From positions 1 to 31,269 of the forward strand of contig JBOFIR010000037.1 in NCBI GenBank assembly GCA_051650265.1: a DNA stretch of 31,269 nt, written 5' to 3'. Position 1 is the first letter of the stretch. Each line of letters begins with the position of its first letter. Made by a program: the position numbers and the translations under genes. This stretch comes from Cellulosilyticaceae bacterium (GTDB lineage Bacteria; Bacillota; Clostridia; Lachnospirales; Cellulosilyticaceae). The notes beneath the pieces were generated by a model. It was not told the DNA's origin, ran no database searches, and was given only the letters and a program-made list of their open reading frames with translations. Positions 1 to 18,919 of this stretch are shown here, piece after piece.

Positions 1-1188
1 CAGACCAGTAGCAAGACGATGAGTGTAATCACCATGACGTTGATTGTTGCCATCTGTGGGTATATGGGTGTGGTTTATTTTTGTGGCATTAATATGGGGC
101 ACTTGGCAGAGCGCATGGTGTTTGATTTGCAGATGGGAAATATGTATACCCCTGTGTCAGATGAGGCGCTGCTCTCAGATACACGCTACGATATTGTGCG
201 AGAATTTCTAGATGAGCAGGGCATCGCGGTCAAGGATGATGTGTATTTTGAGACGTATCTGCCTCAGAAAGAGCAGTTTCACCAGCGGGTGAAATATGAT
301 TTTCCATTTTCAGCGATTGCACTAAGTGATTACAATGCGCTACTGAATATGCAGGGACTACCACCTATAGACTTGGCAGAGGATGAGTTTGCTACCCAGT
401 GGTATGCCCTAGCCAGTGATAGGGAGATTGCTGACTTTGTACAAGCACATCAAGTCTTAGAGACAGACAATGGTACGCTAAGGCTGGCTGAAAATCCAGT
501 ATATACGTATAAGCTGAGTAACAATCTGTATAATGCGTATACTTCTGGTATTTATATTATCCCAGATCATATGGTAGAGGGGCTGCTGGCTGTAGAGCAG
601 CAGCGAGCGATCAATCTGATAGAACCACTGCCCTATGACAAAGGTGCGAAGCTCGGGCAGCTATTTGATACGTATTATGCCAAAGAAGCTGAGGCGTATC
701 ATTTGCAGCAAACAGCCTTAAAACAACGGCAAGCACCCCTCCCTATTTATCATTTGAGAGCCAAAAGTGTGGAGGTTAGTGATGCCAAAAGCTACAACTT
801 CATCATGCAGTCAGTCGTTTTGTGTGGTGCCACAGTTCTTTTGGTCATTTGCTTCACGATGTTGGCGCTGCAACAGCTCTCTGATGCCACTCATTTCAAA
901 TACCGCTTTGGTGTACTCAGGAGGCTGGGTGTCGATGAAGCACGCATCAACCGTCTGATTCAAAAGCAGCTCGGGCTATGGTTTGGGCTTCCTATAGGAT
1001 TTGGATACTGTACGGGGCTGGCGATTTGTCTAGCTGTGATGTTTGGATGGGTGAATGAGACGAGAGCTTATATTGGGTTTGGGACACTGTTGATTCAAGT
1101 GGGTGCAATTGCGTTGGTATTAGGGATTTTATTTACCTGTTACTATATAGCGACGTATTTGTTGTTTAAGAGAATAGTGAACAAGTAG
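1..1188 (+). CDS. ABC transporter permease, FtsX/MacB-like C-terminal half (5' partial; the reading frame is open to nt 1)
   Basis: Frame 1 is open from the window edge, so the M at 19 is internal. Translation shows TM segment - large extracytoplasmic domain - 3 C-terminal TM helices, the FtsX-type permease topology. Stop TAG 1186-1188, followed by a terminator hairpin. Confidence 0.55.
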   Translation, partial: QTSSKTMSVITMTLIVAICGYMGVVYFCGINMGHLAERMVFDLQMGNMYTPVSDEALLSDTRYDIVREFLDEQGIAVKDDVYFETYLPQKEQFHQRVKYDFPFSAIALSDYNALLNMQGLPPIDLAEDEFATQWYALASDREIADFVQAHQVLETDNGTLRLAENPVYTYKLSNNLYNAYTSGIYIIPDHMVEGLLAVEQQRAINLIEPLPYDKGAKLGQLFDTYYAKEAEAYHLQQTALKQRQAPLPIYHLRAKSVEVSDAKSYNFIMQSVVLCGATVLLVICFTMLALQQLSDATHFKYRFGVLRRLGVDEARINRLIQKQLGLWFGLPIGFGYCTGLAICLAVMFGWVNETRAYIGFGTLLIQVGAIALVLGILFTCYYIATYLLFKRIVNK

Positions 1189-1192
1189 CACA

Positions 1193-1233
1193 AAAGGATA
1201 AATCTTAACAAAAGAGATTTATCCTTTTTGTTA
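1193..1233 (+). terminator. Rho-independent terminator
   Basis: Perfect 13-bp inverted repeat aaaggataaatct / agatttatccttt with 9-nt loop and T-run (ttttt) immediately 3'. Followed by ~100 bp of AT-rich sequence (candidate promoter region for the downstream operon, not pinpointed). Confidence 0.6.
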
Positions 1234-1342
1234 TAAAAAAAATAAAAAATAATTAATTTTATATATAAAAAATGTTCAAAAAATTATAAGATAAGGTGAG
1301 AGTAAAATAAAGTCAAAATAAAAGTAAAAAGGAGTGAGCAGT

Positions 1343-2314
1343 ATGACACAAAGAGAGAGATTTATCAAAACATTAAAAGGTGAAAAGATAGGAGGTCAGG
1401 TGCCACACTTTGAGCTGGTATTTTTCTTGACCATGGAGGCTTTTGGCAAGGTGCATCCTTCACAGAGACATTATGGTCAGTGGAACCAGATGAGCTATGC
1501 AGAGAAAAAACTACATATATACGATATGGCAGATCTTTATATTGAGACAGCAAGACGTTATGACCATGATGCGATTTTTGTGCATCCCAACCCAGGGGAC
1601 TTTGACAACGTGCAGTGGCTTCTTGAGACGATTAGAGAGAAGACAGGCGATACGTATTATCTGATGATGCATGGTGACCCAACTTGGTCGATCCCATCAG
1701 GAGATGACATGATGGACTTCGCAGCACAGATGTATGAGGAGCCGGAGAAGCTCAATGAGATTTCTCAAAGACGTGTGGAGCAATCCCTTGCATTCGCAAG
1801 CAAGCTAGATGCCAAAGGGCATCTTTTAGATGGCTTTGCCTTATGCTCTGACTACTGCTTCAACGTGAATCCATTTTTCAATGAAGAGAAGTTTGATGAG
1901 CTGATCGTGCCTTACCTTGCAGAGGTGATCAAAGGCTATCGTGATCTGGGGTATTATACGATCAAACATACAGATGGCAATATCATGCCGATCCTTCAGC
2001 AGATGGTGGACTGTAAGCCAGATGCCCTTCACTCACTTGATCCACAAGGTGGCGTTGATCTTGCAGAGGTCAAGCGGTTGTATGGGGATCAGGTCACACT
2101 TATTGGTAATGTCAACTGTGGTTTGCTTCAGACAGGGACAGAGGAAGAATGCCGTAGTGATGTGCTACGTACCTTAAAGCAAGGTATGGAAGGAGGCAAA
2201 GGCTTTATTTTCTCAACGTCTAACTGTGCCTATACAGGCCTACCACTTGAGCGATATGAGATGATGGTAGACTTGTGGCGTGAATATGGTAACTATGACA
2301 ACCAAAAGTGGTAA
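1343..2314 (+). CDS. Uroporphyrinogen decarboxylase (URO-D)/MtaA-fold family protein
   Basis: ATG 1343 preceded by AAAGGAG at 8 nt spacing (track start 1334 is GTG 9 nt upstream). N-terminus MTQRERFIKTLKGEKIGGQVP matches the MtaA/URO-D family start (ER-x-L-x-GE-x-D-VP). The MtaA Zn ligand motif H-x-C is not seen; IKHTDGN is present instead. 25 nt upstream of the sulfatase, with RBS AAGAGGAG. Confidence 0.5.
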   Translation: MTQRERFIKTLKGEKIGGQVPHFELVFFLTMEAFGKVHPSQRHYGQWNQMSYAEKKLHIYDMADLYIETARRYDHDAIFVHPNPGDFDNVQWLLETIREKTGDTYYLMMHGDPTWSIPSGDDMMDFAAQMYEEPEKLNEISQRRVEQSLAFASKLDAKGHLLDGFALCSDYCFNVNPFFNEEKFDELIVPYLAEVIKGYRDLGYYTIKHTDGNIMPILQQMVDCKPDALHSLDPQGGVDLAEVKRLYGDQVTLIGNVNCGLLQTGTEEECRSDVLRTLKQGMEGGKGFIFSTSNCAYTGLPLERYEMMVDLWREYGNYDNQKW

Positions 2315-2338
2315 TTCAAGCAAAAGAGGAGCGAATCA

Positions 2339-3729
2339 ATGACGAACATTGTTTTTATCTTAATAGATGATATGGGCTGGAAAGACCTAGCCTGCTATGG
2401 CAGTACATATTATGAAACACCTGAGATTGATAAGCTTGCCAAGGGCGGCATGCGCTTTGATCAGGCTTATGCAGCTTCTCCTGTGTGTTCACCCACTCGT
2501 GCGAGTATCATGAGTGGGAAGTATCCCGCGAGAGTACAGGTTACTGATTGGATTGGGGCATCGGCTAGAGGTCGCCTTATTGATGCACCTTATGTAGACC
2601 ATCTGCCTTTGGCAGAGAAGAGTCTGGGGTCTGCCTTGAAGGAGAATGGCTATGCCACCTGGCATGTGGGCAAGTGGCATCTAGGTGCCAAGCCGTACTA
2701 TCCAGACCAGCATGGTTTTGATGTGAATATCGGGGGCAATCACGCAGGGCACCCACACCATGGCTACTTTAGCCCTTATCAGCTAGAGAATCTAGAGGAG
2801 GGACCTGATGGCGAGTATCTAACAGATCGCCTCACCGAGGAGAGTATCACACTCATTCGTAATAGAGATAAGACCAAGCCTTTCTTCCTCAATTTGTGGC
2901 ACTACACAGTGCATACACCGGTACAGGCAAAGGCTGCAGATATTGCTTACTTTGAAGAGAAGGCGAAGCGTTTGGGATTAGATCAGCAAGTCGCACTGGT
3001 AGAGGGAGAGCATTTCCCTTGTGAGCACAAGAAAAATCAGCGGGTAATGCGCCGCGTTGTCCAGTCAGACCCAGCCTATGCAGCTATGATCTACAATCTA
3101 GACTGGAACGTTGGGCGATTGATGCAGGTCTTAGAAGCAGAAGGGATCTTGGAGGATACACTGATCATCTTCACTTCGGACAATGGTGGCCTTGCCACAG
3201 CAGAAGGTTCACCCACATGCAATGCCCACTGAGTGAGGGCAAAGGCTGGATGTATGATGGTGGTGTGAGAGAGCCGCTCATAGCTTATTGGAAGGGGACC
3301 ATCGGATCAGATAGCCTCAGCCATCGGTTGGTCACAAGCCCTGATTTTTATCCAACGTTCTTGGAGATAGCAGGTGCACCACTACAGCCTCAGCAGCATC
3401 AAGATGGTGAGAGCTTTGCGAACACGCTTAGGGGAGCAGCAGGGGAGAGACAGCAGCCCCTATTCTGGCACTACCCTCATTATGGCAATCAAGGTGGCAC
3501 ACCGTACTCAGCCATCCGAGATGGGGCATATAAGCTCATTTATTTCTATGAAGACGAGAGCGTTGCACTCTATGATCTCACACAGGATGTAGGGGAAACA
3601 CATAATCTAGCAGATCAGATGCCAGAAGTTGTAGAGGCACTTCTGGTAACCTTAAAGAAATGGGTGGTTGAAGTTGATGGGAGAATTCCAGTTACAAACC
3701 CAGCCTATACAGACAGGGATCATCTTTAA
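2339..3729 (+). pseudogene. Cys-type sulfatase (arylsulfatase family), frameshifted
   Basis: N-terminal ORF 2339-3232 carries the sulfatase signature LIDDMGW...CSPTRASIMSGKYP (FGly motif C-S-P-T-R, Cys codon ~2486). Sulfatase-like sequence continues in the +2 frame (3217-3729: PLSEGKGWMYDGGVREPL...). The frames are joined by restoring one C in the run aatgCCCact (3225-3227). Frame-1 stop TGA is at 3230-3232. Confidence 0.65.
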
Positions 3730-4600
3730 TATACAGAAGTTTTCGGTCCATGATGGACCAGGAATCCGTACAACGGTGTTTATGAAAGGCTGCCCCCTTC
3801 GCTGTAAGTGGTGCCACAACCCAGAAGGACTCGCTAAGAGACAGCAGCTTCAGTATATGGCAACCCAGTGTATTGGCTGTCAGAAGTGTGCACAGGTGTG
3901 TCAGCAGGGTGTGCATACATTTGGGAACCAAGTCCATCTCGTGGATGCTAAGAAGTGCACGCTCTGCGAAGCCTGTATGGCGGCGTGTCCTGCGCAAGCA
4001 CTTGTAAGATGTGGGGATGTGATGACGGTGCAGCAGGTGATGCAGGAGGTTCTAGAAGATCAAGTTTTTTATGGGGAAACTGGCGGCGTGACTTTCTCGG
4101 GGGGCGAGGCTTTGATGCAAAGTCCTTTTGTAACAGAGGTCTTAAGCGCTTGTAAAGCAGAAGGGATCCATACAGCCATTGATACATCAGGGTATTGCAA
4201 ATGGGAGGATCTTGAGCGGACACTGCCGTATTGCGATTTGTACCTGTATGATATCAAGAGTCTCAATCTGGCAAAGCACAAGGAGTTAACAGGGGTGGAA
4301 CCCACTTTGATCTTAGAGAATCTAAAGCGCCTGGATGCAGCGCAAAAGCCCATATGGATCAGGGTACCTGTTATTGGTGGCTTGAATGCCAATGAGCAAG
4401 AGATGCGGGAAATTGCCCAGTTCATCAAATCACTAAGCCATGTGGCGCAGACAACTTTGATGCCCTATCATGTGCTTGGTAAAGAAAAGTATCAGACATT
4501 GGGGCGGGTCTATGACTATGATGCAAGTGAGCTTGTGACACAGGAGATGCTTTTGAGTTATCAGGCCATCTTTGTGTCTGAGGGGATTTTATTAAAATAG
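3677..4600 (+). CDS. Glycyl radical enzyme activating enzyme (radical SAM, PFL2-class with ferredoxin-like insert)
   Basis: GIIFNIQKFSVHDGPGIRTTVFMKGCPLRCKWCHNPE is the hallmark Gly-rich + CxxxCxxC N-terminus of PflA-like activases. Two additional CxxCxxCxxxC clusters (CIGCQKCAQVC, CTLCEACMAAC) are typical of activases of GDH/CutC-type GREs. Start is ambiguous: TTG 3668 (track) or ATG 3677. It overlaps the sulfatase 3' end, which stops at 3729. Confidence 0.85.
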   Translation: MGEFQLQTQPIQTGIIFNIQKFSVHDGPGIRTTVFMKGCPLRCKWCHNPEGLAKRQQLQYMATQCIGCQKCAQVCQQGVHTFGNQVHLVDAKKCTLCEACMAACPAQALVRCGDVMTVQQVMQEVLEDQVFYGETGGVTFSGGEALMQSPFVTEVLSACKAEGIHTAIDTSGYCKWEDLERTLPYCDLYLYDIKSLNLAKHKELTGVEPTLILENLKRLDAAQKPIWIRVPVIGGLNANEQEMREIAQFIKSLSHVAQTTLMPYHVLGKEKYQTLGRVYDYDASELVTQEMLLSYQAIFVSEGILLK

Positions 4601-4615
4601 AGGTGAGGGTCAGGG

Positions 4616-6808
4616 ATGAATCGTACAGCTTTTTTAAGAAAGGTTACTATCAACAATGAGAATAAGATGATGCGCCGTGTGATGCCAGATGATTGGTCGG
4701 TAGCAGACAAGGCATGTAGCTTGATGGAAAGAAGAGCCTATGCAGTAGCGAAGGTACTTGAAGAGATGCCGCTCTATATAGGGGAGCAAGAATTGATCGT
4801 TGGTACAAGAACGATACTTGGTAGACTAGGTTCAGGCAAAGAACCAGAAGGGATCTCAGACTTTTGTGATGCAGTATTGCCAGCGTATGTTAATCAGCAG
4901 GATATAGACTTTTTTGGTTTTCATGCACCGCATCTGAAGACCCATGCTGCAGGTGATTATGGGATTATCCTACGCAAAGGGATTGATGGTGTTATTGCAC
5001 AGGCGAGGGAGCAATTAGAAGGCGAAATGCTTGAAGACCAAGCTGATTTTCTAAAAGCAGTGATCATCTGTTATCAGGGGCTAAGTACACTGATCAAGCG
5101 CTATAGTGACTATGCCCTGTTGTTGGCTACCCAAGAAGTGGATGCCACAAGAAAGGCGGAATTAGAGACTATTGCAACAGATTGTGAGTGGCTAGCCCAT
5201 CAACCCGCCCATGATTTTAAGCAGGCGTGCCAGATGCTATGGTTTGCGCATTTGACAGTCATGGTAGAAAATTTTGGGCTTATGAGCTATGGGAGGGTGG
5301 ATCAGGTACTTGCGCCTTATCTTGGAGTGATGCCAAAAGAACAAGCGCAGCAGTACATCGATTGTTTACTTCTTAAGATGTATGACCAGGTGGATCTCAA
5401 GGAATGTTACTATGGGACACATTCCTCACAGCCCAATATAACGATTGGGGGGATTACACCTGAGGGAGAAGATGCTATCAATGAGGTGACTTATTTACTC
5501 ATTGAAGGAAAGAAGCATACCAACCTACCTGACCCACAGTATGCTATTCGTATCCACAGCAAAAATCCTGAGCAGTATGTAGAGGCTGTCTGTGAACTTG
5601 CAGTAAAAGGTATCAATTGTGTCTCTTATTATAACGATGATCTTTGGATTGAGAGTATGTGCCATGCGGGCATATCACGGATACATGCCAATGACTATGC
5701 CTTTGATGTATGCCAAGATATGACAGTGGCTGGGAAGGGGGATTTTTGTGCATCTGGTGATATTTCACTCCTGCGTACCCTGCTTGATTATCTAGAAACT
5801 GTGTCTGCAGAATGTACTTGGGAGGTCTTATATGAGGGATTCAAGACACTTGCTATTCAAAAGATGGAAGAAGTGATTGGGCGATACAATCGTACACTAG
5901 AAGCCTTTATTGCATTTCATGAAGGCGATAGACAGAGGTATGTAGATCAAGTCAAAGCAGGTGAAGTCGGGCAGACTTTAGGATGGAATACATCTCTCAT
6001 GGCACCTATCCCTTTTACTTCAACACTATTTGAGGGGTGTATGGAGACCGCTACAGATTTGACACGAGTAGGCTGTCTACTCAAACATAGGGGCTTTTAC
6101 TTTATGGGGCCAACAGAGACCCTCAATGGGTTAAGTGCGATCAAATACTGTGTTTATGAGAAGAAAATGCTGAGTCTAGAGCAGGTCATTGCGGCCTATC
6201 AGTCAAATTATGAGGGGTTAGAAGGAGAGGTCATCAGACAGCACCTCCTTCATGCACCCAAATGGGGAAATGATGATGATTTTGTTGATCTACTTGCCAA
6301 AGATTTGTTTGAATCAGTCTGCCAAGAGGTGAGCAAACATCAGACACCAGATGGTGGGGTACATCTAGCAGGTCTGCATCAGGCACATCCTGTAGGTGAT
6401 GGCAAGTACTACGGCGCGACACCAGATGGTAGGCGTGCAGGTGAGCCCCTTACAGTATCTTTGTCACCTGCCAATGGGACAATGAAAAAAGGACCTTTAG
6501 CAGCGCTCAAATCTGTGGCAAAGCTTGATCCGAATTGTTGTCAGTGGAATAGCTGTTTCATGCTACAATACTTTAGTTCTGTCTTTGAAGGCAATGAGGG
6601 AATCACCAACTTCAAGAAGTTATTAGAAGGTTATTTTGCAATAGGTGGGATGCAGCATCAGCCCAATGTAGTAGATGTGGGTGCACTCAAGGCGGCACAA
6701 AGGGAGCCTGAAAAGTATAAGGATCTTATTGTGAGGATGTGGGGTGTTTCTGCCCACTTTGTAGACCTTACCAAAGAGATTCAAGATGAACTCATTAATC
6801 GTTTCTGA
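4616..6808 (+). CDS. Glycyl radical enzyme (PFL2/glycerol-dehydratase-like fold), divergent, substrate unassigned
   Basis: N-terminus RAYAVAKVLEEMPLYIGEQELIVGTRT resembles the GRE N-terminal region. C-terminal Gly-radical domain GGMQHQPNVVDVGALKAAQREPEKYKDLIVRMWGVSAHFVDLTKEIQDELINRF aligns to GG-Q-NV...PE-Y-DLIVRV(A/S)GYSA-F-L-KE-Q-E-I-R. Candidate thiyl loop NDYAFDVCQDMTV lies ~344 aa upstream of the radical Gly (Cys366, Gly710), consistent with GRE spacing. RBS GAGGTGAGGG. Confidence 0.8.
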   Translation: MNRTAFLRKVTINNENKMMRRVMPDDWSVADKACSLMERRAYAVAKVLEEMPLYIGEQELIVGTRTILGRLGSGKEPEGISDFCDAVLPAYVNQQDIDFFGFHAPHLKTHAAGDYGIILRKGIDGVIAQAREQLEGEMLEDQADFLKAVIICYQGLSTLIKRYSDYALLLATQEVDATRKAELETIATDCEWLAHQPAHDFKQACQMLWFAHLTVMVENFGLMSYGRVDQVLAPYLGVMPKEQAQQYIDCLLLKMYDQVDLKECYYGTHSSQPNITIGGITPEGEDAINEVTYLLIEGKKHTNLPDPQYAIRIHSKNPEQYVEAVCELAVKGINCVSYYNDDLWIESMCHAGISRIHANDYAFDVCQDMTVAGKGDFCASGDISLLRTLLDYLETVSAECTWEVLYEGFKTLAIQKMEEVIGRYNRTLEAFIAFHEGDRQRYVDQVKAGEVGQTLGWNTSLMAPIPFTSTLFEGCMETATDLTRVGCLLKHRGFYFMGPTETLNGLSAIKYCVYEKKMLSLEQVIAAYQSNYEGLEGEVIRQHLLHAPKWGNDDDFVDLLAKDLFESVCQEVSKHQTPDGGVHLAGLHQAHPVGDGKYYGATPDGRRAGEPLTVSLSPANGTMKKGPLAALKSVAKLDPNCCQWNSCFMLQYFSSVFEGNEGITNFKKLLEGYFAIGGMQHQPNVVDVGALKAAQREPEKYKDLIVRMWGVSAHFVDLTKEIQDELINRF

Positions 6809-6907
6809 GTTTTTTCTTCAAAAAGTTAGACCTTCTACACCAATTGGCGCTATAATAGATGGTAGAATAGTCTAATTTTGGGATAACACCAATAAGGTGG
6901 ATAAAGT

Positions 6908-8113
6908 ATGGAGGTAGGAGTGATGATGGTACTAGTGGTACTTAGCATAGCTGCTCTAGGGGTTGCAGCTTGGCAATATCATGAGCGACAAAAACTCCAG
7001 AGAAGGTTAGTGATTTTAGAGGCTATAGAAGAACTAGGGGAGCGATTCAATAGCCAATTAAAACTCAGTCAGTTAGTAGATCATATTGTGAAGACGCTAA
7101 AAAGGGAAATCGCTGCTGATATGGGTGCGCTGTTCTTAGTCAATGATGAGGGGAATAAGTTGGAACTACAAGTTGCACTTGGAAACAATGATGCACAAAT
7201 CGGGGAAAATTATTCACCACTAGGGGATAAGATTGCTGATTGGGTAGCGCATCATGGGGAGAGTGTGAATCTCAGAGACGCTATGACCAATGAAGTGATT
7301 AGGAACTGGTATGCGCAGGAGGTGGCGAGCTCACCGTATGAGTATGCATTGCTGACACTACCGATCAAAGATGATCACAAAGTAATCGGGGTCTTACAAT
7401 TTATCAATAGTACACCGAGGCGTGTGTTTGGAGAAGAAGACCAAAGCTTTGTAGAGGAAGTCATCCGAAGAAAAGTGGTGATGAGTCTGGAAAAGGCACA
7501 GCTCTATGAAAAGCTACGTACCACTTTTGTAGACTCTATACGTACTGTAGCGAGTGTTATTGATGCGAAGGATAAATATACCATAGGGCATTGTCACAGG
7601 GTAGCCGACTATGCCATACGTCTGGGGCGATATATGGGGCTTGAAGATGAAGCGATAGAGGATCTAGAATATGCGGCAATTCTTCATGATGTGGGTAAGA
7701 TTGGTATTAGTGATATGATCTTGAATAAGGCAACAAGCCTGACTCAGGAGGAATATGAACTGGTCAAACAACATCCTGTATTGGGCGCTGAGATTTTGAG
7801 CAAGATTACGACCCTCAAGGAAGAAGTGGTATGGGGGGCAAAGTATCACCATGAACGCTATGATGGTGGTGGTTATGGAGAGGGACTGAGTGGCAAGGAG
7901 ATCCCGCTTTATGCAAGGATTATCGCAATTGTAGACGCCTATGATGCCATGGTTGGCGATCGGGTGTACCACAAGGGGATTGCACCTGAGGAAGCCATTA
8001 CAAGGCTGCTAGAAGGCAAGGGGACACAGTTTGATCCGGCTCTTACCAATTTGTTTGTTCAGATGATTCGAGCAACTGAGAGAAGTAGAACACATACAAA
8101 AAGATCTTGCTAA
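6908..8113 (+). CDS. GAF domain-containing HD-GYP phosphodiesterase (c-di-GMP)
   Basis: N-terminal TM helix, GAF-like region, then HD-GYP motifs HDVGKIG, HHERYDGGGYGEGL and IVDAYDAM. Confidence 0.75.
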   Translation: MEVGVMMVLVVLSIAALGVAAWQYHERQKLQRRLVILEAIEELGERFNSQLKLSQLVDHIVKTLKREIAADMGALFLVNDEGNKLELQVALGNNDAQIGENYSPLGDKIADWVAHHGESVNLRDAMTNEVIRNWYAQEVASSPYEYALLTLPIKDDHKVIGVLQFINSTPRRVFGEEDQSFVEEVIRRKVVMSLEKAQLYEKLRTTFVDSIRTVASVIDAKDKYTIGHCHRVADYAIRLGRYMGLEDEAIEDLEYAAILHDVGKIGISDMILNKATSLTQEEYELVKQHPVLGAEILSKITTLKEEVVWGAKYHHERYDGGGYGEGLSGKEIPLYARIIAIVDAYDAMVGDRVYHKGIAPEEAITRLLEGKGTQFDPALTNLFVQMIRATERSRTHTKRSC

Positions 8114-8130
8114 GCAAGGTCTTTTTTGTT
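8101..8130 (+). terminator. Rho-independent terminator overlapping the stop codon
   Basis: aagatcttgc-taag-gcaaggtctt stem (10 bp, one G.U) followed by ttttttgttt. Confidence 0.5.
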
Positions 8131-8222
8131 TGCTGGTCTAAAGGTGAATACACCCTAATACAATGGGTAGTGGGCAAATGTGAAACTTTGCGCCATAAAA
8201 CGTGTATAAAGGGGTGATTGGT

Positions 8223-10247
8223 ATGACATTAGCAATCATTATGATCGCAACACTTGTAGGCATCATTGTATTACTGTGGTTACTGGGATTCAAAATTATT
8301 CGAAATGATCGTGTAGGAATTGTTGAGAAATGGTGGTCAACGAAAGGTTCTTTGAAAGAGCAGATTATCGCACTAGGCGGCGAAGCGGGTTATCAGCCAG
8401 AGCTTCTTCGTGGTGGGATTCACTTTAGATCCCCACTCTTTTACAAAGTACATATTGAGCCGCTTGTGACTGTGCCACAGGGCAAGATGGCCTATGTCTT
8501 TTCAAGAGATGGACAGGTGCTAGAACCTACGCAGACATTGGGGCGTGTGGTTCCAGCGTGCAACAACTTTCAAGATGTACGGGCATTCCTCACTGGTGGG
8601 GGACAAAAAGGACCGCAACGTGGGATTATCCGTGAGGGAACCTATGCTTTTAACTTGGCGCAGTTTGTCATCATCACAGAAAACAAGACCTATTATCTCA
8701 AGATGGGTAACCGTGAGGAACAAGCGGACTTAGCTGAGATGGCGCAGCTCATTGCGATGAGAGGTGGTTTCTCACCTATAGTGATTCAAGGGAATCAAGA
8801 CCAAGTAGGAATTGTCACAGTACATGATGGGCCATCTCTAGGAAGAGATGATATTATTTGTCCAACAGTAGGTGATGATGCCAATGCAGAGCACTATCAT
8901 AACAACTTCCAAGATATCAATGCTTTCTTAGCCGCAGGTGGCTACCGTGGTAGACAGCTTCAAGTCTTAGCAGACGGAACATACTTTATCAATAGACTGT
9001 TTGCAACGGTTGAATTTATCCCTAAGGTAGTGATACCAGTAGGATTTGTAGGTGTTGTTGTCTCTTACACAGGGGCCAAGGGAGAAGACTCTTCTGGTAG
9101 CGATTACAAGCATGGTGAACTGGTCAAGAAAGGGTATAGAGGGGTGTGGAGTGAGCCACTTATGCCCGGGAAATATGCTTTTAATATCTATGCAGGGAGC
9201 ATTATTCAGGTGCCTACTACCAACGTCATCCTTAAGTGGATTAGCAATCAAACAGGGAATCATAAATATGATGAGAACTTGACAGAGGTCAGCCTGATTA
9301 CAAAGGATGCATTTGAACCGAGTTTGCCACTTTCTGTTGTCTTCCATATTGATTACCGCAAGGCGCCTTATGTGATTCAGCGATTTGGAAACATCAAGAT
9401 GCTAGTCGATCAAACCCTCGATCCAATGATCTCTGCGTACTTCAAGAATGTTGGGCAGACCAAGACGCTGATCGAGCTCATCCAGCAGCGTAATGAGATT
9501 CAGGCACAAAGTTCTGATGAGATGAAAGCGAAGTTTGATCACTACAACCTAGAGCTTGAAGAAGTACTGATCGGGACGCCTGGGGCCTCTAAGTCAGATA
9601 ATAATATCGAGACGATCCTCACGCAGCTCCGTAGTCGCCAGATTGCCAAAGAGCAGTTAGACACTTATGAAACACAACAAAGAGCAGCGGAGAAGGAAAA
9701 GGAACTTAAAGAAGCTGAAGCTGTTGCCAAACAACAGACAGCCCTTACAGAGTCTGATATCAACATTCGTATTCAAGAAAATCAAGGTAAGGCCGAGCTG
9801 ATGAAAGCAAGGCAAGATGCAGAGAAGATCCAAAGACTCTCCGAAGCAGATGCTTACAAGATCAAGCAGCAGTCAGAAGCGGAAGCGTATCGTATCAAGA
9901 TCACTGCATCAGCAGATGCTGACAAGGAAGCACGCGTGGGGATCTCCAAGGCGATTGCAGCCAAGGAGCAGGTCAGTGCCTATGGTGGACCACAGTATAA
10001 GGTTATGGGTGATGTGATGGGCTCCTTTGCGACAGCCATCAAAGAAGGGCAAATCGATATTGTACCTAAGACTGTGGTCAATGCAGGAGGGGAAGGCAGT
10101 ACTGGTAATGCCTTTGAATCACTCATTATGCTACTTCTAAGTGAGAAGCTTACAAGCCTCAATGATTCAGAAGTAAGTATGGAGTCTCCGCAGGTTGAGC
10201 GCATCAAACAAGAAATATTGAGCCAAATAGCTGAGCAAAAAGAATAG
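8223..10247 (+). CDS. Flotillin-like SPFH/band-7 domain protein with long C-terminal coiled coil
   Basis: ATG 8223 with AAAGGGG RBS (track GTG 8202 is 7 codons upstream). N-terminal TM (LAIIMIATLVGIIVLLWLLGF), SPFH-like core, then an Ala/Glu/Lys/Gln-rich heptad-like region (AEKEKELKEAEAVAKQQ...EADAYKIKQQSEAEAYRIKI) as in FloT/YqiK-type flotillins. 674 aa is long for the family. Confidence 0.5.
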   Translation: MTLAIIMIATLVGIIVLLWLLGFKIIRNDRVGIVEKWWSTKGSLKEQIIALGGEAGYQPELLRGGIHFRSPLFYKVHIEPLVTVPQGKMAYVFSRDGQVLEPTQTLGRVVPACNNFQDVRAFLTGGGQKGPQRGIIREGTYAFNLAQFVIITENKTYYLKMGNREEQADLAEMAQLIAMRGGFSPIVIQGNQDQVGIVTVHDGPSLGRDDIICPTVGDDANAEHYHNNFQDINAFLAAGGYRGRQLQVLADGTYFINRLFATVEFIPKVVIPVGFVGVVVSYTGAKGEDSSGSDYKHGELVKKGYRGVWSEPLMPGKYAFNIYAGSIIQVPTTNVILKWISNQTGNHKYDENLTEVSLITKDAFEPSLPLSVVFHIDYRKAPYVIQRFGNIKMLVDQTLDPMISAYFKNVGQTKTLIELIQQRNEIQAQSSDEMKAKFDHYNLELEEVLIGTPGASKSDNNIETILTQLRSRQIAKEQLDTYETQQRAAEKEKELKEAEAVAKQQTALTESDINIRIQENQGKAELMKARQDAEKIQRLSEADAYKIKQQSEAEAYRIKITASADADKEARVGISKAIAAKEQVSAYGGPQYKVMGDVMGSFATAIKEGQIDIVPKTVVNAGGEGSTGNAFESLIMLLLSEKLTSLNDSEVSMESPQVERIKQEILSQIAEQKE

Positions 10248-10252
10248 ATCAG

Positions 10253-10296
10253 AAAGAGCCCCATGAGTGAATAATCATCACTTATGGGGCTCTTTT
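10253..10296. terminator. Bidirectional rho-independent terminator between convergent genes
   Basis: 18-bp stem with 1 mismatch (aaagagccccatgagtga / tcacttatggggctcttt), 7-nt loop, A-run 5' and T-run 3'. Lies between the flotillin stop (10247) and the aminotransferase stop (10309, minus strand). Confidence 0.7.
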
Positions 10297-10308
10297 CAAA
10301 GTATGTAT

Positions 10309-11499
10309 CTATTTATTTTTGTAAAACTCAGCGAGTTGTGTGAAAGCTGGAAGTGAGCGTTCAATCTGAGCGTAACTTGTGCAGTATGCAAGGCGTACAT
10401 AGCCAGGGCAACCAAAAGCTGAGCCTGGAACAAGTAAGAGATTGAAGCGTTTGGCATCTTCACAGAATTGCTTATCATCTGCAATTAAGCTTTTTGGAAA
10501 GAGGTAAAATGCGCCTTGTGGCTTGATACACTCAAAGCCAATGCTTGTAAGGTGATTGTAGAGCAGGTCACGGTTGCGCTTATAGATGTTGACATCTACT
10601 TCATTGCCAAGACATTTGGCGATCACACGCTGGAAGAGTGATGGGGCATTGACAAAGCCAAGGATACGGTTGGCAACGTTGAGGGCGCCCATCATATCTT
10701 GGAAGTGATCCATCTCACCATGTGCGACGATGTAGCCGATACGCTCACCAGGTAAAGAAAGTGACTTGCTATAAGAGTAACCGATGAAGCTATTACGGTA
10801 GTAGCTGAGTATGTATGGCACTTTGGCATCATCATATACAAGCTCACGATAAGGTTCATCTGAGATGAGGTAGATACTTGTGCCAAGTGCTTGTTGCTTT
10901 TCTTCAAGTACTTGTGCAAGACCACGTAGTGCTGCATCAGAATAGATCACCCCCGTTGGATTATTTGGTGAGTTGATGATAACTGCTTTGGTACGCGCTG
11001 TGATCAGTGTAGCGAGCGCCTCAAGGTTTGGCTCAAAGGTCTCTGTGTCAGCAGGAACTACGACAAGTTTGCCATCGAAGTTGCTCACGTAATTGCGATA
11101 TTCACCGAAGAATGGTGCGAAGACAATCACTTCATCCTCTGGGTTCAGAAGCGTTTTGAGGAGGATGTTGAGGCCACCAGCAGCGCCGCATGTCATGACG
11201 ATATTGTCTACGCCAAGAGATACACCATGCAGGTTGCTTAAGTGCGCAGCAATGTCTTGGCGCACATCCTCATAGCCAGAGTTGTTCATATAACCATGAA
11301 CGAGGTTTGGTGTCTCTTGACTTAGGATCTCAGAGATGGCAGATGTAATTGCCTCGGGTGGTTCTACGTTAGGGTTGCCTAAGCTAAAGTCAAAAACATT
11401 CTCTGCGCCGTGAATGGCAGCAAGGCGTTTGCCTTCTTCGAACATGGCGCGGATTGTAGAACTTCCTGCCTCAAGTGTTTGCATTTTGTTTGATATCAT
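10309..11499 (-). CDS. PLP-dependent aminotransferase, class I/II (aspartate/aromatic aminotransferase-like)
   Basis: SYSKSLSLPGERIGY contains the S-x-S-K...G-x-R PLP-lysine motif, with an N-terminal aminotransferase fold. Start chosen at MISNKMQTLEAG (ATG complement 11497-11499), with AAAGGAG 7 nt upstream. The track's 30-codon upstream extension lacks an RBS. Confidence 0.8.
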   Translation of the reverse strand: MISNKMQTLEAGSSTIRAMFEEGKRLAAIHGAENVFDFSLGNPNVEPPEAITSAISEILSQETPNLVHGYMNNSGYEDVRQDIAAHLSNLHGVSLGVDNIVMTCGAAGGLNILLKTLLNPEDEVIVFAPFFGEYRNYVSNFDGKLVVVPADTETFEPNLEALATLITARTKAVIINSPNNPTGVIYSDAALRGLAQVLEEKQQALGTSIYLISDEPYRELVYDDAKVPYILSYYRNSFIGYSYSKSLSLPGERIGYIVAHGEMDHFQDMMGALNVANRILGFVNAPSLFQRVIAKCLGNEVDVNIYKRNRDLLYNHLTSIGFECIKPQGAFYLFPKSLIADDKQFCEDAKRFNLLLVPGSAFGCPGYVRLAYCTSYAQIERSLPAFTQLAEFYKNK

Positions 11500-11672
11500 A
11501 TGAATACTCCTTTGGTAAAATACTAAATTATTAAAAACATTATAGCATATTATAAACAAAAATAGAGAGGACGTTTTACCCAAAATCCACACAAAGCTTT
11601 GTTTTTAATGTTATATAATTAATAAAAAGTGTATTTTAATTCACAGATAATATATTTTGAAAGTCAAATCAT

Positions 11673-11701
11673 TTGATATTCAAACTAAATTGTGCTATAC
11701 T
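11673..11701 (+). promoter_or_regulatory. Sigma-A-type promoter for degV-family gene
   Basis: TTGATA - 17 bp - TATACT with TG at -15/-14 (tgcTATACT), 35 nt upstream of the ATG at 11736. Confidence 0.45.
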
Positions 11702-11735
11702 CATTTCAATGAAAAGAAATTAGGAGGATTACCTG

Positions 11736-12602
11736 ATGAAAATTAAATTGATTACAGATTCGGCATCTGATTTGCCGTTAAATTATATTGAAGCAAATGA
11801 TATTGCAGTAGCATGCCTTGAGGTGAATATCAAGGGAGAGTTTATCAAAGACGATTTTGGACAAAGTTTACCGTATGCGCGTTTCTATGAGTTATTGCGC
11901 CAGGGTGAACTTACAAGTACATCACAGGTGAACATCCATACTTTTGAAGAGTTATTTGAAGGGTATGTCAAAGAAGATTACAAGATTATTTATATTGGTC
12001 TTGCAAGTGTGCTGAGCGGAACGGTAGGTAGTGCCACTGCAGCAAGAGCAAATATCTTAGAGCGCTACCCAGATGCAGACATTTCAGTGATTGATTCAAA
12101 GAGTGCATCATTAGGTGAAGGGCTCTTGGTATGTAAGGCACATGAGATGATTAAGGCAGGGTGCCCAAAAGAGGAGATTGTAAATTGGTTAGAAGCCAAT
12201 CGTTCAAAGGTTATTCATGCCATTACTGTGGATGATTTAGGATTCCTCAAAAGAGGTGGGCGCATCTCAGCGGCTACAGCTGTAGTAGGTGGACTTTTAG
12301 GGATCAAGCCAAGTATCAGTTTTGATGATGAAGGCCATGTCATCCCAGGGGCAAAGCTTAAAGGTAGTAAGAATGCACTGAGATATTTGGTGAATCAAGT
12401 GGTTGAGAAAGGTGTTAATCTTGAAGATCAGACATTATTTATCTGTCATGGTGATGTAGCAGATCGTGCTCAGACACTCAAAGAGATGATCCTTGAAAAA
12501 GTAAATGTAAAAGATATAGTCATTGGTCATATCGGTACAGTGATTGGTACACATGGGGGACCAGGTGCAATGGCTGTTATGTTCTTAGGAGAAAAGCGTT
12601 AA
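11736..12602 (+). CDS. DegV family (fatty-acid-binding, EDD fold) protein
   Basis: MKIKLITDSASDLP N-terminus and length (288 aa) characteristic of DegV/DUF194. RBS AGGAGG. Confidence 0.8.
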   Translation: MKIKLITDSASDLPLNYIEANDIAVACLEVNIKGEFIKDDFGQSLPYARFYELLRQGELTSTSQVNIHTFEELFEGYVKEDYKIIYIGLASVLSGTVGSATAARANILERYPDADISVIDSKSASLGEGLLVCKAHEMIKAGCPKEEIVNWLEANRSKVIHAITVDDLGFLKRGGRISAATAVVGGLLGIKPSISFDDEGHVIPGAKLKGSKNALRYLVNQVVEKGVNLEDQTLFICHGDVADRAQTLKEMILEKVNVKDIVIGHIGTVIGTHGGPGAMAVMFLGEKR

Positions 12603-12614
12603 TATAGAATGAAT

Positions 12615-12656
12615 AAGGATATAAACACCTGAGTGTGTTTATATCCTTATTTTGTT
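12615..12656 (+). terminator. Rho-independent terminator
   Basis: Perfect 14-bp stem aaggatataaacac / gtgtttatatcctt, 6-nt loop, attttgttt tail. Confidence 0.7.
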
Positions 12657-12831
12657 TGCCTTTTAGAAAGCATTGGGATAAAGAATCATTTAAAATGTAT
12701 AAATATACTTTGCGAAATATAGCAGATATTTAAGGAATGCTAGTGATAATAATAGACAAGATTTTTTTACAAGGGTATAATAAATGCAGAATAAGTAGAA
12801 AAAGATCAATATATGGAGTGGAGGAATAGAG

Positions 12832-15123
12832 GTGAGGCTATCAACAAAGACGACACTGATTTTTTTATTGACAATGTTGATTAGTGGCGTTGCTTATGTA
12901 TTAACGGGTACATACCTGGCAGGCTATTTATATAAAGGTGAGACAACACGTATTACAGGGATTACTGGTAGTGTCATGAGTAGAGTGGATAGTGAAGTAG
13001 TTAAGCTGACGGGAAAAACAAAAGATTATGCATCATTAATTGGAGCAGCCCGCAGAATCCAGAGCCAGTTTGGTGTTGATGGGTTTAAAGCACTTCAGCT
13101 AGAGTCACCCTTTAAACAAGATGAGATTGATTTTAAGCTTTTTCTCACGCCAGAATTTGAAGTGCAACAAATATATGGAGAGTTGGGACAGTATGAGCAA
13201 GAGGAACTTGAAAAAATTTTAGCCCAGGTACAGCCTATGATTAATCCGAGTGAGCCGGGAGTGATTAATAGGATGATCGGTACGATATCCGATCCGTATT
13301 TTGTGGGGGTTGTTCCTTTGTTTTTTGAGGATTATAAAGTAGATGGGTACTTCGTGTTGGTGGAGCACTTTGGTCAAACAAAAATATCTGAGATTGGCGC
13401 ACGTATGATGAGAGAGTTGAATCTTGTGACGACATATGATAAGGACTCAGCACAGGTTCAAGAGCTAAGAGAAGGTGTGAATGTGGCGATTGTCTATGAT
13501 GCAGAGACTGTGCGCAGCTACTATCAACTGTCATGTACAGGCGTTGGGCAGCCGTACTATATTGAGTTAGTAGAGCCGCTTGTGATCTGGCTTCTAACCA
13601 AGGGGAATATCGATATTGTAATCGGGCTTGTAACGGTCTTCTCACTATTGATTTTTTTAGGGTTATGGAGGGTAATGGACCAGGTAGTGGTTCAGCGCCT
13701 AAGGTATATGACAGATGCAATTAATTGTATGCGTGAAAGTTCTGATTTGACGGTTAGGCTGGAAAAAGGGACTGCAAAGGATGAAATTGCTGAGCTTGCT
13801 GAGGGAATCAATAATATGGTAGAGGCACTAGAAGAAAGCCATAGCCTTCTGGTAGCCAATGAACAAAAGTACAGCCAGTTGGCCAAGTATGATAGTTTAA
13901 CAGGACTTTATAACCGCTATCGGATCACTTATCTCATGGAAGAAATCAAAATGCCATACACAGTATATTTTGTGGATATTGATAACTTCAAAGAGATCAA
14001 TGATGCCATGGGACATAATATAGGTGATGAGGTCATTTGCGAAGTTGCTAAGCAGCTGAAAAGTTTTATTGATAGACATACAAAGGTAGCACGTATCGGC
14101 GGAGATGAGTTCGTGATCTTAAGACTCGGAAGCTTCAGTGAAGAAGCGCGGGAAGCCTTCGCCAAAAGTCTTCTTGGGAGTATCAATCGTGTTTATAGCT
14201 TTGGTAATTATACCTTTGAGATCAATGGAAGTATGGGAATTAGTTATTACCCAGAGCATGCAGTGCAGCAGAAGAATTTGCTGCGCTATGCAGATATTGC
14301 AATGTACCATGCCAAGCAACATGGTGGCAGAATTTATAGTGTTTTTAGAGCAGAGATGTTAGAAGAAATAGAGCTTGAGGCAGAACTAAGAGAAGCGATT
14401 ACCAAAGATGAGTTCAACGTGTTTTACCAACCGATCTATGATATGCAGGCGGCACGCATCATGGGGGCAGAGGCTTTGGTAAGATGGGAAAAAAATGGTG
14501 AGTTGATCTCACCTATCAAGTTCATCCCTCTTGCCAAAAAGACAGGAGATATTGCATTAATTGATCAGATAGTTCTTGAACAGGCATGCCAGTTTTGTAA
14601 AAGACAGCGAGAGCTTGGTAAGGTCAACTTTGAAGTTTCCGTCAATGCCTCTTATCGTTGGCTTATGCAGGCTGATGTGATGCAATATATTGATTATGCT
14701 TTAGATGAGGCAGGCCTTCCACCACAAGCGCTTAAGTTAGAGATTACAGAAGATGAAGTCATGGATAATCCAAAACAAGTGATTGCACTACTTATGCAGA
14801 TCAAGGCCAAAGGAATCCGTATTGCACTAGATGACTTTGGGGTGGGTTATTCTTCCTTTAATTATATCAAGATGCTACCTATTGATGTACTCAAGATTGA
14901 TAGAAGTCTACTCTTAGAAGTAGAGCAAGATAATAAGACAAAATCCATTATTGAGACGATGATTATGCTTTCTCACACACTTGGTTTGGAGGTTGTGTGT
15001 GAAGGGGTGGAGACATCGGAGCAAATGAACTTGTTACAAACTATTGGATGCGATAAAATCCAGGGGTACTTGATTAGCAAGCCTGTTCCCGAACAAGCAT
15101 TTTTATTATTGGAAAATAAATAA
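12832..15123 (+). CDS. Membrane sensor diguanylate cyclase/phosphodiesterase (periplasmic sensor-HAMP-GGDEF-EAL)
   Basis: Two TM segments bracketing a ~230-aa extracytoplasmic domain, then a HAMP-like segment. GGDEF domain with intact RIGGDEFVIL. EAL domain with EALVRW, DDFGVGYSS, KIDRSLL and EGVET all intact. Confidence 0.85.
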   Translation: MRLSTKTTLIFLLTMLISGVAYVLTGTYLAGYLYKGETTRITGITGSVMSRVDSEVVKLTGKTKDYASLIGAARRIQSQFGVDGFKALQLESPFKQDEIDFKLFLTPEFEVQQIYGELGQYEQEELEKILAQVQPMINPSEPGVINRMIGTISDPYFVGVVPLFFEDYKVDGYFVLVEHFGQTKISEIGARMMRELNLVTTYDKDSAQVQELREGVNVAIVYDAETVRSYYQLSCTGVGQPYYIELVEPLVIWLLTKGNIDIVIGLVTVFSLLIFLGLWRVMDQVVVQRLRYMTDAINCMRESSDLTVRLEKGTAKDEIAELAEGINNMVEALEESHSLLVANEQKYSQLAKYDSLTGLYNRYRITYLMEEIKMPYTVYFVDIDNFKEINDAMGHNIGDEVICEVAKQLKSFIDRHTKVARIGGDEFVILRLGSFSEEAREAFAKSLLGSINRVYSFGNYTFEINGSMGISYYPEHAVQQKNLLRYADIAMYHAKQHGGRIYSVFRAEMLEEIELEAELREAITKDEFNVFYQPIYDMQAARIMGAEALVRWEKNGELISPIKFIPLAKKTGDIALIDQIVLEQACQFCKRQRELGKVNFEVSVNASYRWLMQADVMQYIDYALDEAGLPPQALKLEITEDEVMDNPKQVIALLMQIKAKGIRIALDDFGVGYSSFNYIKMLPIDVLKIDRSLLLEVEQDNKTKSIIETMIMLSHTLGLEVVCEGVETSEQMNLLQTIGCDKIQGYLISKPVPEQAFLLLENK

Positions 15124-15125
15124 AC

Positions 15126-15166
15126 AAAAAAAGACAATACATGCACAGCGGGTATTGTCTTTTTTG
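15126..15166. terminator. Bidirectional rho-independent terminator
   Basis: aaaaaaagacaatac / gtattgtcttttttt perfect 15-bp arms, 11-nt loop. Sits between convergent GGDEF-EAL (+) and TPR (-) genes. Confidence 0.7.
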
Positions 15167-15169
15167 TTG

Positions 15170-16024: not shown

Positions 16025-16077
16025 AAGTTACCTCATTTGATAGATACTGTGTCGGTTTTAGTCTTAGTATAGCAAAA

Positions 16078-17601: not shown

Positions 17602-17722
17602 TTGTAACACATCCTTTATAAAAATATACTTTAGTTTAAAGATTAACATATTAATACCTAAGTTTCCAGAAAATGTAAGATCCTTACCTCCAAAATGTCG
17701 AAGAAGGTAAGGGTCTAAGGAT

Positions 17723-17905
17723 TTAGCTTGCGTATTGAATCCAGTAGTATAGGACATAGATCCAGCTGAGTAAGCCGTGGACAATCGCCCATGGGATGGA
17801 TTGCCAAGTAGTGTAGGACAAAATCATGGCTAGGCAAGAACCAAAAGAAATGCCTGCTTTGACAGTTTTGTCGATATGGTAATGCTTTTCGTAGTTATCG
17901 CTCAT
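17723..17905 (-). CDS. Small hydrophobic protein (60 aa), unknown function
   Basis: MSDNYEKHYHIDKTVKAGISFGSCLAMILSYTTWQSIPWAIVHGLLSWIYVLYYWIQYAS, with two predicted TM helices. Strong RBS AAAGGGGGAG 5 nt upstream of ATG. Confidence 0.4.
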   Translation of the reverse strand: MSDNYEKHYHIDKTVKAGISFGSCLAMILSYTTWQSIPWAIVHGLLSWIYVLYYWIQYAS

Positions 17906-18857: not shown

Positions 18858-18919
18858 TATTGAGCAATAAATTAAAATAATGTAAAATAAGATGAACAAA
18901 TATTAAAGGTGGAGGCATT

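Follow-up and report, generated by a model that had tools for sequence, protein, structure and literature searches.

We analyzed a 31,269-nucleotide stretch of DNA (contig JBOFIR010000037.1, positions 1 to 31,269 of the forward strand; hereafter the window) from a metagenome-assembled genome (MAG) of a Cellulosilyticaceae bacterium. An open reading frame (ORF) of 730 amino acids at 4616..6808 on the plus strand of the window encodes a full-length glycyl radical enzyme (GRE), which the source annotation describes only as 'pyruvate formate lyase family protein'. A Pfam search of this ORF placed a domain like that of pyruvate formate-lyase (PFL; PF02901, E 1.4e-110) at residues 107-587 and a glycyl radical domain (PF01228, E 3.4e-21, profile positions 5-106 of 106) at residues 616-716 (6461..6763, plus strand). 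The best solved relative in a phmmer search was the B12-independent glycerol dehydratase 1r8w (E 3e-93). Directly upstream, at 3668..4600 on the same strand, lies the gene of a cognate glycyl-radical activating enzyme, a radical S-adenosylmethionine (SAM) protein, which scored 365.5 bits against the TIGR02494 cutoff of 174, matched the Pfam models Radical_SAM and Fer4, and carries a CX3CX2C motif at 3791-3814 followed by two ferredoxin-like Cys motifs. The activase gene ends with a stop codon at 4598-4600, which leaves 15 nt to the GRE start, and the sequence shows a ribosome-binding site, GAGGTGAGGG (4600..4609, plus strand), 6 nt before the ATG at 4616. With the stop codon so near this ATG, the two genes are tightly coupled.

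We built an AlphaFold2 (AF2) model of the window GRE on a 40-sequence family alignment (A1). The model had a mean pLDDT of 91.9 and a pTM of 0.92, and its sole low-confidence stretch was residues 74-80. A Foldseek search against the PDB returned GREs only, with TM-scores of 0.80-0.83 over the full length to glycerol dehydratase (0.82 for 1r8w), propanediol dehydratase, CutC, HypD, PflD, YbiW and HplG. Taken together, the Pfam, AF2 and Foldseek results indicate that the protein has the PFL-like ten-stranded alpha/beta barrel of the GRE superfamily and a C-terminal glycyl radical domain with the Gly at a hairpin tip. The clade to which the protein belongs (see below) is short mainly because about 43 residues are deleted between the segment aligned to glycerol dehydratase residues 48-78 and the one aligned to 163 onward. 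In the alignment to 1r8w the deletion region corresponds to GRE residues 67-109 (4814-4942, plus strand), the segment that includes the low-confidence stretch of the model.

The initial annotation had described this protein as a GRE in which both the Cys loop and the Gly loop are non-canonical, a description that held, down to the exact positions. In the phmmer alignment, Y361-A-F-D-V-C366-Q367-D368-M369 (5696..5722, plus strand; part of the motif NDYAFDVCQD starting at residue 359) paired with YGIIGCVEP of 1r8w, which contains Cys433 and Glu435. R707-M-W709-G710-V711-S-A-H-F715 (6734..6760, plus strand; motif RMWGVSAHF starting at residue 707) paired with RVAGYSAQF, which contains Gly763. The putative thiyl residue Cys366 is encoded by TGC at 5711-5713 and is followed by Gln367 (5714-5716) and Asp368 (5717-5719), so that Asp replaces the Glu of the Cys-X-Glu (CXE) motif. 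The putative radical residue Gly710, encoded by GGT at 6743-6745, lies between Trp709 (TGG, 6740-6742) and Val711 (6746-6748). DSSP analysis of the model placed Cys366 in a short turn between two strands and Gly710 at a hairpin tip flanked by strands 705-707 and 712-714. Cys366 is thus in the place of the mid-protein finger-loop Cys of GREs. Neither the alignment to 1r8w nor a motif check revealed a second GCVE-like loop anywhere else in the protein.

GREs are recognized by the quoted fingerprint RVxG[FWY]x6-8[FL]x4Qx2[IV]x2R (PMC13450708, PMC11528403). The corresponding segment of the window GRE, R707-M-W-G710-V-SAHFVD-L718-TKEI-Q723-DE-L726-IN-R729, agrees with it at the Arg, the Gly, L718, Q723 and R729, and departs from it as follows: the Val is Met (Leu in most relatives), the aromatic residue after the Gly is Val, and the [IV] position is Leu (Met or Phe in relatives). 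The C-x-E of GRE eliminases and isomerases reads C366-Q-D368 here. Another catalytic residue of the dehydratases is retained: His110 (4943..4945, plus strand; THAAGDYG aligned on GHVSVDYG) is the equivalent of glycerol dehydratase His164, the proposed general acid, and does not vary in alignment A1. The replacement of the V-E dyad by Q-D noted in the initial annotation is real, but a carboxylate is kept at Cys+2, so that the presumed general base is a shorter one and has not disappeared.

We then examined how widely these features are conserved. A search of 5.8 billion clustered proteins gave 120 listed relatives that are 41-50% identical to the window GRE and mostly about 730 amino acids long, with a few truncated or longer; their hosts are Paludicola, Christensenella, Merdivicinus, Oscillospiraceae and other gut and rumen Clostridia. 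C366, Q367 and G710 were present in 120/120 of them, and D368, W709 and V711 in 119/120. R[LM]WGV was found in 118/120, the remaining two reading RMWGVAAHF and RIYGISAHF. We also surveyed genomes, taking one per species, and obtained 79 loci, 70 of them non-redundant. Every full-length family GRE in these loci combined R[LM]WGV with LCQD (or VCQD or QCQD), and unrelated GREs in the same loci retained RVAGY/GCVE, RVSGY or RVCGW. The putative active-site positions H110, Q272, C366, Q367, D368, H588, H591, W644 and N645 were invariant across the family regardless of gene context. These data indicate that the altered loop motifs are family traits rather than a one-off. Of the 140 positions conserved to 95% or more in the family, the window GRE itself differs at 6 (family median 2, maximum 20), and the six deviations are mostly conservative (M/L, V/L, I/L, Y/C, A/P and T/P). 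Because these deviations are within the family range, the gene is apparently an ordinary, intact family member and not a decaying copy.

To place the family among GREs, we used a HMMER search of 1.84 billion representatives, which gave 5,715 GRE-like clusters (E <= 1e-30 for 1,430 of these), and, for motif counts, aligned those 141 representatives nearest to the window GRE that have 600 amino acids or more. In this set the Cys366 column is Cys in 140/141 and the His110 column is His in 110/141. The motifs form a graded series, from RVAGY/GCVE through RVWGF/DGCxE, RVWG[YF]/DACQD and RVWGV/D[LQ]CQD to R[LM]WGV/DLCQD. Most of the representatives (about 30-36% identity to the window GRE, about 790-810 amino acids) have GCVE and RVAGY. 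A wider set of short GREs (for example P0132-P0145, P0166, P0207 and P0224; 33-36% identity, about 710-745 amino acids) reads DGC[WQSTYV]E and RVWGF. Sister clades (P0126-P0130; 34-39% identity) read D[AWQL]CQD and RVWG[YFV], with RVWGV in P0129 and P0130, and share GxHQ and QWN with the core clade. The core clade (the window GRE, P0012, P0078, P0119 and P0121-P0123; 40-48% identity) has Y[GA]F[DG]LCQD, R[LM]WGVSAHF, H110, Q272, G[ILV]HQPHP and QWNxC.

The same counts show which residues are unusual. Trp before the Gly occurs in 31/141 representatives, most of them otherwise RVWGF, and goes with a shorter protein (median 735 amino acids, vs 793.5 for the others). Since it sits at the variable 'x' of RVxG[FWY] and is present in so many representatives, Trp709 is not in itself non-canonical and is best regarded as a clade trait, not an anomaly. 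Val after the Gly was found in only 9/141, all of them with both Trp and a Cys-X-Asp (CXD) loop, and Asp at Cys+2 in 18/141, 13 of these 18 with Trp. By these counts, the genuine departures are the Leu or Met two residues upstream of the Trp-Gly pair's Gly (position -2), the Val at +1 and the Asp of the Cys loop. The initial annotation was right about the Val that replaces Tyr; it counted the Trp as a departure, which the alignment does not bear out. The Val at +1 was confined to proteins with Leu, Val or Gln, and not Gly or Ala, before the Cys (9/9), whereas such a bulky residue before the Cys occurred in 4/132 representatives without the Val. This covariation of residues 365 and 711 fits a compensatory exchange of size between the two loop tips, and hence contact between them; drawn as it is from few independent lineages, it is suggestive. 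Along with the alignment to 1r8w, the fold match over the full length and the hairpin-tip secondary structure, it is indirect evidence that the Cys and Gly loops may face each other in the centre of the barrel.

Two further segments distinguish the clade. The first is the His-rich segment G586-L-H588-Q-A-H591-P592 (6371..6391, plus strand), a strand of the kind lining GRE active sites, in which H588 aligned to glycerol dehydratase Tyr640 and G586, H588, H591 and P592 showed no variation in alignment A1. GxHQPHP is restricted to the core clade, and GxHQ is common to the core and sister clades. The second, D638-PNCCQWNSC647 (6527..6556, plus strand; starting at residue 638), had been pointed out as a second Cys-rich patch away from the PFL Cys pair. 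The patch is present, but it is not a conserved feature as such: column counts show Leu and Ile/Val in place of the Cys-Cys pair 641/642 in most family members, which rules out the cluster as a metal site. What is conserved in this segment is Q643-W644-N645 together with C647, invariant or nearly so in the family. QWN marks the core and sister clades, other GREs in the 141-representative alignment carrying xNG there, and the invariance of C647 is limited to the core clade.

The window GRE fell below every NCBIfam equivalog cutoff of named members. It scored 365 bits against TIGR01774 (cutoff 678), 323 against HypD (1100), 309 against CutC (1050), 308 against HpsG (1000) and 284 against HpfG (1000). 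A sulfonate C-S lyase of the IslA/HpsG type, which we considered on account of a neighbouring sulfatase gene, is not favoured by these family-model scores. Nor is the protein a PFL (formate C-acetyltransferase). PFL carries an adjacent Cys pair, Cys418/Cys419; the window GRE has no Cys-Cys pair in its Cys loop, Val (Leu in relatives) stands before Cys366, and the score against TIGR01255 was 116.7 (cutoff 994). It is likewise no aminoacyl radical enzyme (AARE), in which Ala, Ser or Thr takes the place of the radical Gly, since Gly710 is encoded by GGT and the column is Gly in 120/120 relatives. Separately, we observed Thr at the radical-Gly column in P0168, P0184, P0187, P0203, P0208 and P0235, and Ala in P0171 and P0256, all among the 141 nearest representatives. 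These read RVSTYSAYF, RVAAYSAYF and similar, and are AAREs of the kind reported in PMC11528403.

According to a June 2026 review, CXE is kept in all six C-O eliminases, in CutC, in the C-S lyases and in the three isomerases, its Glu forming a hydrogen bond to substrate; the review mentions no CXD enzyme and describes whole GRE clades as unannotated (PMC13450708). The AARE paper surveyed deviations at the Gly itself and not at its flanks (PMC11528403). Our full-text literature search, whose coverage leaves out many subscription papers, found no paper on the R[LM]WGV/LCQD family, for which there is no curated model either. Judged by its sequences, the clade is a distinct, conserved and uncharacterised GRE subclass with a CXD Cys loop and a two-position break in the fingerprint. 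The suggestion of a new functional subclass therefore fits what we found in the 120 homologues and the genome loci, namely a conserved, functionally unannotated clade and not a damaged gene.

Next, we analyzed the gene neighbourhoods of the family GREs. Within six ORFs of the GRE in the 70 non-redundant loci we found a homologous activase in 51, usually directly upstream, an FGGY kinase in 15, an Fe-alcohol dehydrogenase (FeADH) in 9, DeoC in 6 and an XylF-like sugar ATP-binding cassette (ABC) system in 5. The operon DeoC-FGGY-FeADH-activase-GRE occurs in loci L001/L002, L013, L019 and L031; L001/L002 are from Paludicola, the source of the closest homologue among the matches listed (50% identity). 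The same genes with a GntR regulator inserted are found in L074, and rearranged and accompanied by a sulfatase in L024, and L040 combines an ABC transporter, DeoC, FGGY, activase and GRE in a single locus. The DeoC proteins of the family scored 196 and 195 bits against the deoxyribose-phosphate aldolase (DERA) equivalog cutoff of 117. The kinases are XylB-like (one at 479 bits, cutoff 380), and the binding protein is XylF-like (374 bits, cutoff 389). In the RVWGV sister clade, L086/L087 have the order GRE-activase-AKR-DeoC-FGGY-GH116, where AKR is an aldo-keto reductase and the DeoC scored 169 bits (cutoff 117), and L085 has GRE-GRE-activase-AKR-FGGY. Because the module recurs in two clades with shuffled order and a non-orthologous reductase, we consider this good evidence for a functional unit.

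The two GRE genes of L085 are in tandem (5763-7997 and 8001-10235) with one activase for both, an arrangement that resembles the one reported for threonyl radical enzymes. The contig of P0126 also has two GRE genes, about 4.6 kb apart, and no activase was called on it.

The neighbours in the window are of another sort. Directly upstream of the activase is a sulfatase gene (2339..3729, plus strand; Pfam Sulfatase and SGSH_C) split into two ORFs by a 1-nt frameshift. Its N-terminal and C-terminal ORFs are 63% and 48% identical to the intact orthologue at L007:17521-18912, which also neighbours a family GRE. The frameshift lies near 3217-3232, where one extra C in a CCC run restores ...N-A-P-L-S-E-G-K-G..., i.e. 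a 1-nt deletion; the MAG may contain a homopolymer error here, or the gene may be a genuine pseudogene, and the sulfatase is possibly part of the same operon as the activase and the GRE. In the Oscillospiraceae locus L007, five sulfatase genes, GH95 and GH97 are packed around the activase and GRE (5965-18912), so that it looks like a sulfated-glycan utilisation locus centred on the radical enzyme. Upstream of the window sulfatase is a gene for a URO-D/MtaA-like protein (1334..2314, plus strand; Pfam PF01208, E 3.8e-23), of which only weak relatives were found near two other family loci, making its link to the GRE uncertain. The ORF at 19-1188, probably truncated by the contig start, appears to encode the C-terminal portion of a membrane protein similar to FtsX-type ABC permeases (weak PDB match to PsdB, E 0.03). 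It matched nothing in Pfam or NCBIfam and probably has no connection with the GRE.

A scan of 1000-7200 found 12 promoter-like sites, which is the background level (11.4 expected in shuffles), and 8 terminator-like sites (4.0 expected), none of the latter downstream of the GRE; a promoter-like site is present downstream of the GRE, at 6827-6856. Beyond the operon lie two cyclic-di-GMP genes (6908-8113 and 12832-15123), encoding a GAF-HD-GYP phosphodiesterase and a HAMP-GGDEF-EAL protein, to which we found no link from the GRE. The window also holds a SCIFF system, with a six-Cys precursor peptide, MKHVKTLNTKNLKNSAAKGGCGECQTSCQSACKTSCTVGNQACEK (22460-22597), followed by a radical SAM/SPASM maturase (22632-24038) that scored 722 bits against the TIGR03974 cutoff of 425.

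We then considered what the enzyme may do. The window protein is very probably an active GRE of the distinct clade described above. That it carries out an elimination or isomerisation-type C-O chemistry on a sugar-derived substrate we hold to be slightly favoured. The best overall explanation of the data, to which we give about an even chance, is a functional GRE that dehydrates a sugar-derived polyol to a 2-deoxy sugar feeding a kinase and an aldolase. The conversion of a polyol to a 2-deoxy sugar, taken as a specific claim, is tentative and somewhat doubtful.

The mechanism that we propose builds on glycerol dehydratase, in which Glu435 deprotonates the C1-OH and His164 protonates the leaving C2-OH (PMC13450708). 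Gly710, which forms the tip of the R-M-W-G-V hairpin, would lose a hydrogen to the adjacent radical SAM activase, and the radical would be relayed to Cys366 on the apposed D-V-C-Q-D loop. The Cys366 thiyl would then attack a carbohydrate-derived substrate at a carbon that bears a hydroxyl, taking a hydrogen from it, Asp368, in place of the CXE Glu, would deprotonate that hydroxyl to give a ketyl radical, and His110 would protonate the neighbouring hydroxyl, so that water leaves and the hydrogen is returned from Cys366. The fold and domains, the conserved motifs, the linkage to an activase and the recurring gene module are observations; how the radical is relayed geometrically, what Asp368 and His110 do, which class of substrate is used and what is made from it are our inferences. 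The substrate may be a sugar alcohol, probably a pentitol or pentitol phosphate, and the product a 2-deoxy-aldose. A pentitol could come from a reductase acting on imported pentose, or be imported directly. Dehydration across its terminal diol, as glycerol dehydratase does with its own substrate, would give a 2-deoxypentose, from which the FGGY kinase would make the 5-phosphate and DERA would yield glyceraldehyde-3-phosphate and acetaldehyde. The alcohol dehydrogenase or aldo-keto reductase would supply the polyol or remove the aldehyde.

In such an enzyme the two loops would be matched to each other, a bulky Leu or Val replacing the Gly before the Cys, a small Val replacing the Tyr or Phe after the radical Gly, and Trp standing before that Gly. 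Our preferred reading of the rewritten loops is that their tips have been repacked in a co-adapted way in this clade, and not that function was lost. The pocket has changed too. At the positions of the glycerol dehydratase pocket, His281 is deleted, Ser282 is Leu, Tyr339 is Gln272 and Tyr640 is His588, with His591 nearby. Because pocket positions are replaced by polar residues, the site might suit a larger, polyhydroxylated substrate.

Several observations weigh against this assignment. The window locus contains no kinase, aldolase or reductase; the GRE has as visible neighbours the frameshifted sulfatase and the URO-D-like gene, and only 4.6 kb of contig lie upstream of it. About 80% of the family loci have no kinase and aldolase nearby, and their contexts are heterogeneous, with sulfatases, fucosidases, rhamnosidases, heparinase-like genes, adenine deaminase and Opp transporters, so the family may not be isofunctional. 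Where the module is present, the kinase could equally act before the GRE, and the reductase could act at more than one step of the pathway. Asp is one methylene shorter than Glu, and this change, together with the replaced pocket residues, might mean a chemistry that differs from simple dehydration.

The possible order of kinase before GRE leads to one alternative, namely a YbiW/PflD-type enzyme that either isomerises its substrate or opens a ring as a C-O lyase. Here the FGGY kinase would act first, the GRE would convert a phosphorylated anhydro-sugar or cyclic sugar derivative to a deoxy-keto- or aldo-sugar phosphate, and the DeoC-family aldolase would cleave it. YbiW and PflD do act on sugar phosphates, and their products feed an aldolase (PMC13450708), the same kinase-plus-aldolase logic as in the family neighbourhoods; the model matches 8id0, 8yjo and 8id7 at TM 0.80-0.83, and the invariant His588 and His591 could bind a phosphate. 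The sequence and family-model scores, however, give PflD and YbiW no edge over the dehydratases, YbiW, PflD and HplG are all CXE whereas the clade is CXD, and the reductase of the module is more easily explained by the polyol route. We consider this alternative unlikely, although it deserves to be kept in mind.

Another alternative, to which we assign a similarly low probability, takes the sulfatases at face value. The substrate of the window GRE and L007-like enzymes would stem from sulfated glycans that are broken down (it could be a deoxy-hexose, a sulfated sugar or, derived from one of these, a polyol), the family would be multifunctional, and the kinase/DERA module would apply to some members only. 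The sulfatase directly upstream in the window, the five sulfatases with GH95 and GH97 around the activase and GRE in L007, further sulfatases in L054 and L024, and the recurrent fucosidase and rhamnosidase genes are all consistent with it. But the window sulfatase is frameshifted, and in L024 a sulfatase is joined with the DeoC-FGGY-FeADH module. Moreover, the putative pocket residues are invariant whatever the context, which argues for one substrate class.

That the protein is a dead or decaying GRE homologue, a pseudoenzyme devoid of the canonical fingerprint and of the Glu base, is very unlikely. It does fail RVxG[FWY] at two positions, has no CXE, stays below every equivalog cutoff and lies near a broken sulfatase gene. 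Yet the variant residues are near-invariant over 120 clusters and about 70 species-level loci, the Gly and Cys are kept, the adjoining cognate activase is intact, and an intact reading frame is predicted to give a full barrel with high confidence. Because the activase adjoins and only 6/140 positions deviate, mostly conservatively, a 'catalytically altered' GRE, as the initial annotation had put it, is not favoured in the sense of an impaired one. Finally, that the motifs are assembly or sequencing artefacts, for which the MAG source and the homopolymer frameshift 1.4 kb upstream might speak, is refuted by the conservation data and has a negligible probability, as identical motifs occur in independent assemblies and in the isolate genomes of Paludicola sp. 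MB14-C6 and Christensenella intestinihominis.

Returning to the reading of the enzyme as a polyol dehydratase, it can be extended to a broader proposal, which we regard as improbable in its full form. In it, an anaerobic route as yet undescribed would have the R[LM]WGV/LCQD clade and its RVWG/CQD sisters as its signature enzymes and would lead from pentose via pentitol and 2-deoxypentose to the phosphate and its DERA split. If true, gut and rumen Clostridia would have a glycyl-radical alternative to the 3+2 split of phosphoketolase. It would also be the first time that a GRE eliminase was shown to use Asp instead of Glu as base, or a GRE to store its radical on a Gly between Trp and Val, and two motifs used for recognition and classification would be loosened. 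GREs are sorted by the RVxG[FWY] fingerprint, and eliminases and isomerases by CXE. A sizeable, conserved clade from human-gut, chicken-gut and rumen Clostridia breaks both and keeps its activase; therefore, mining by motif under-counts GREs, and Asp presumably can serve as the base. The recurrent link to an FGGY kinase, deoxyribose-phosphate aldolase and reductase gives a concrete hypothesis of a new carbohydrate pathway in organisms of interest for host health, such as Christensenella, and the Trp and Val flanks are a natural experiment on how the Gly loop tunes the installation and stability of the radical.

Among known enzymes, glycerol dehydratase of Clostridium butyricum (1R8W/1R9D) and 1,2-propanediol dehydratase (5I2G, 9RCO) resemble the window GRE in the barrel, the positions of the Cys and Gly, the His (164, here 110), the carboxylate at Cys+2 and the adjoining activase with its ferredoxin domain. 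Unlike glycerol dehydratase, to which it is about 26% identical, the window GRE is about 57 residues shorter, mainly through the N-terminal deletion between residues 67 and 109. The clade has L/V-C-Q-D for G-C-V-E and R-L/M-W-G-V for R-V-A-G-Y, and the pocket residues His281, Ser282, Tyr339 and Tyr640 correspond to a gap, Leu, Gln and His. YbiW and PflD (8ID7, 8ID0) are GRE isomerases that convert 1,5-anhydroglucitol/mannitol-6-phosphate to 1-deoxyfructose-6-phosphate (PMC13450708). They give comparable fold scores, and the family neighbourhoods are like theirs in that a phosphorylating enzyme and an aldolase accompany the GRE. They differ from the clade in keeping CXE and RVAGY, in length (765-810 amino acids) and in their partners, which are a phosphotransferase system and transaldolase-type aldolases, compared with an ABC transporter, an FGGY kinase and a DeoC/DERA aldolase in the clade; nothing that we observed in the clade points to an anhydro-sugar substrate.

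The uncharacterised short 'RVWGF' GREs are like the clade in their length of about 710-745 amino acids, in the Trp before the radical Gly and often in an Asp two residues before the Cys. They keep the aromatic residue after the Gly, the Gly before the Cys and the Glu at Cys+2, and have no HQPH or QWN. AAREs are PFL-like GRE homologues that also break the 'universal' fingerprint and are paired with activases, and they do form radicals (PMC11528403). Whereas AAREs swap the Gly itself for Ala, Ser or Thr, the clade described here keeps the Gly and changes its neighbours and the base of the Cys loop.

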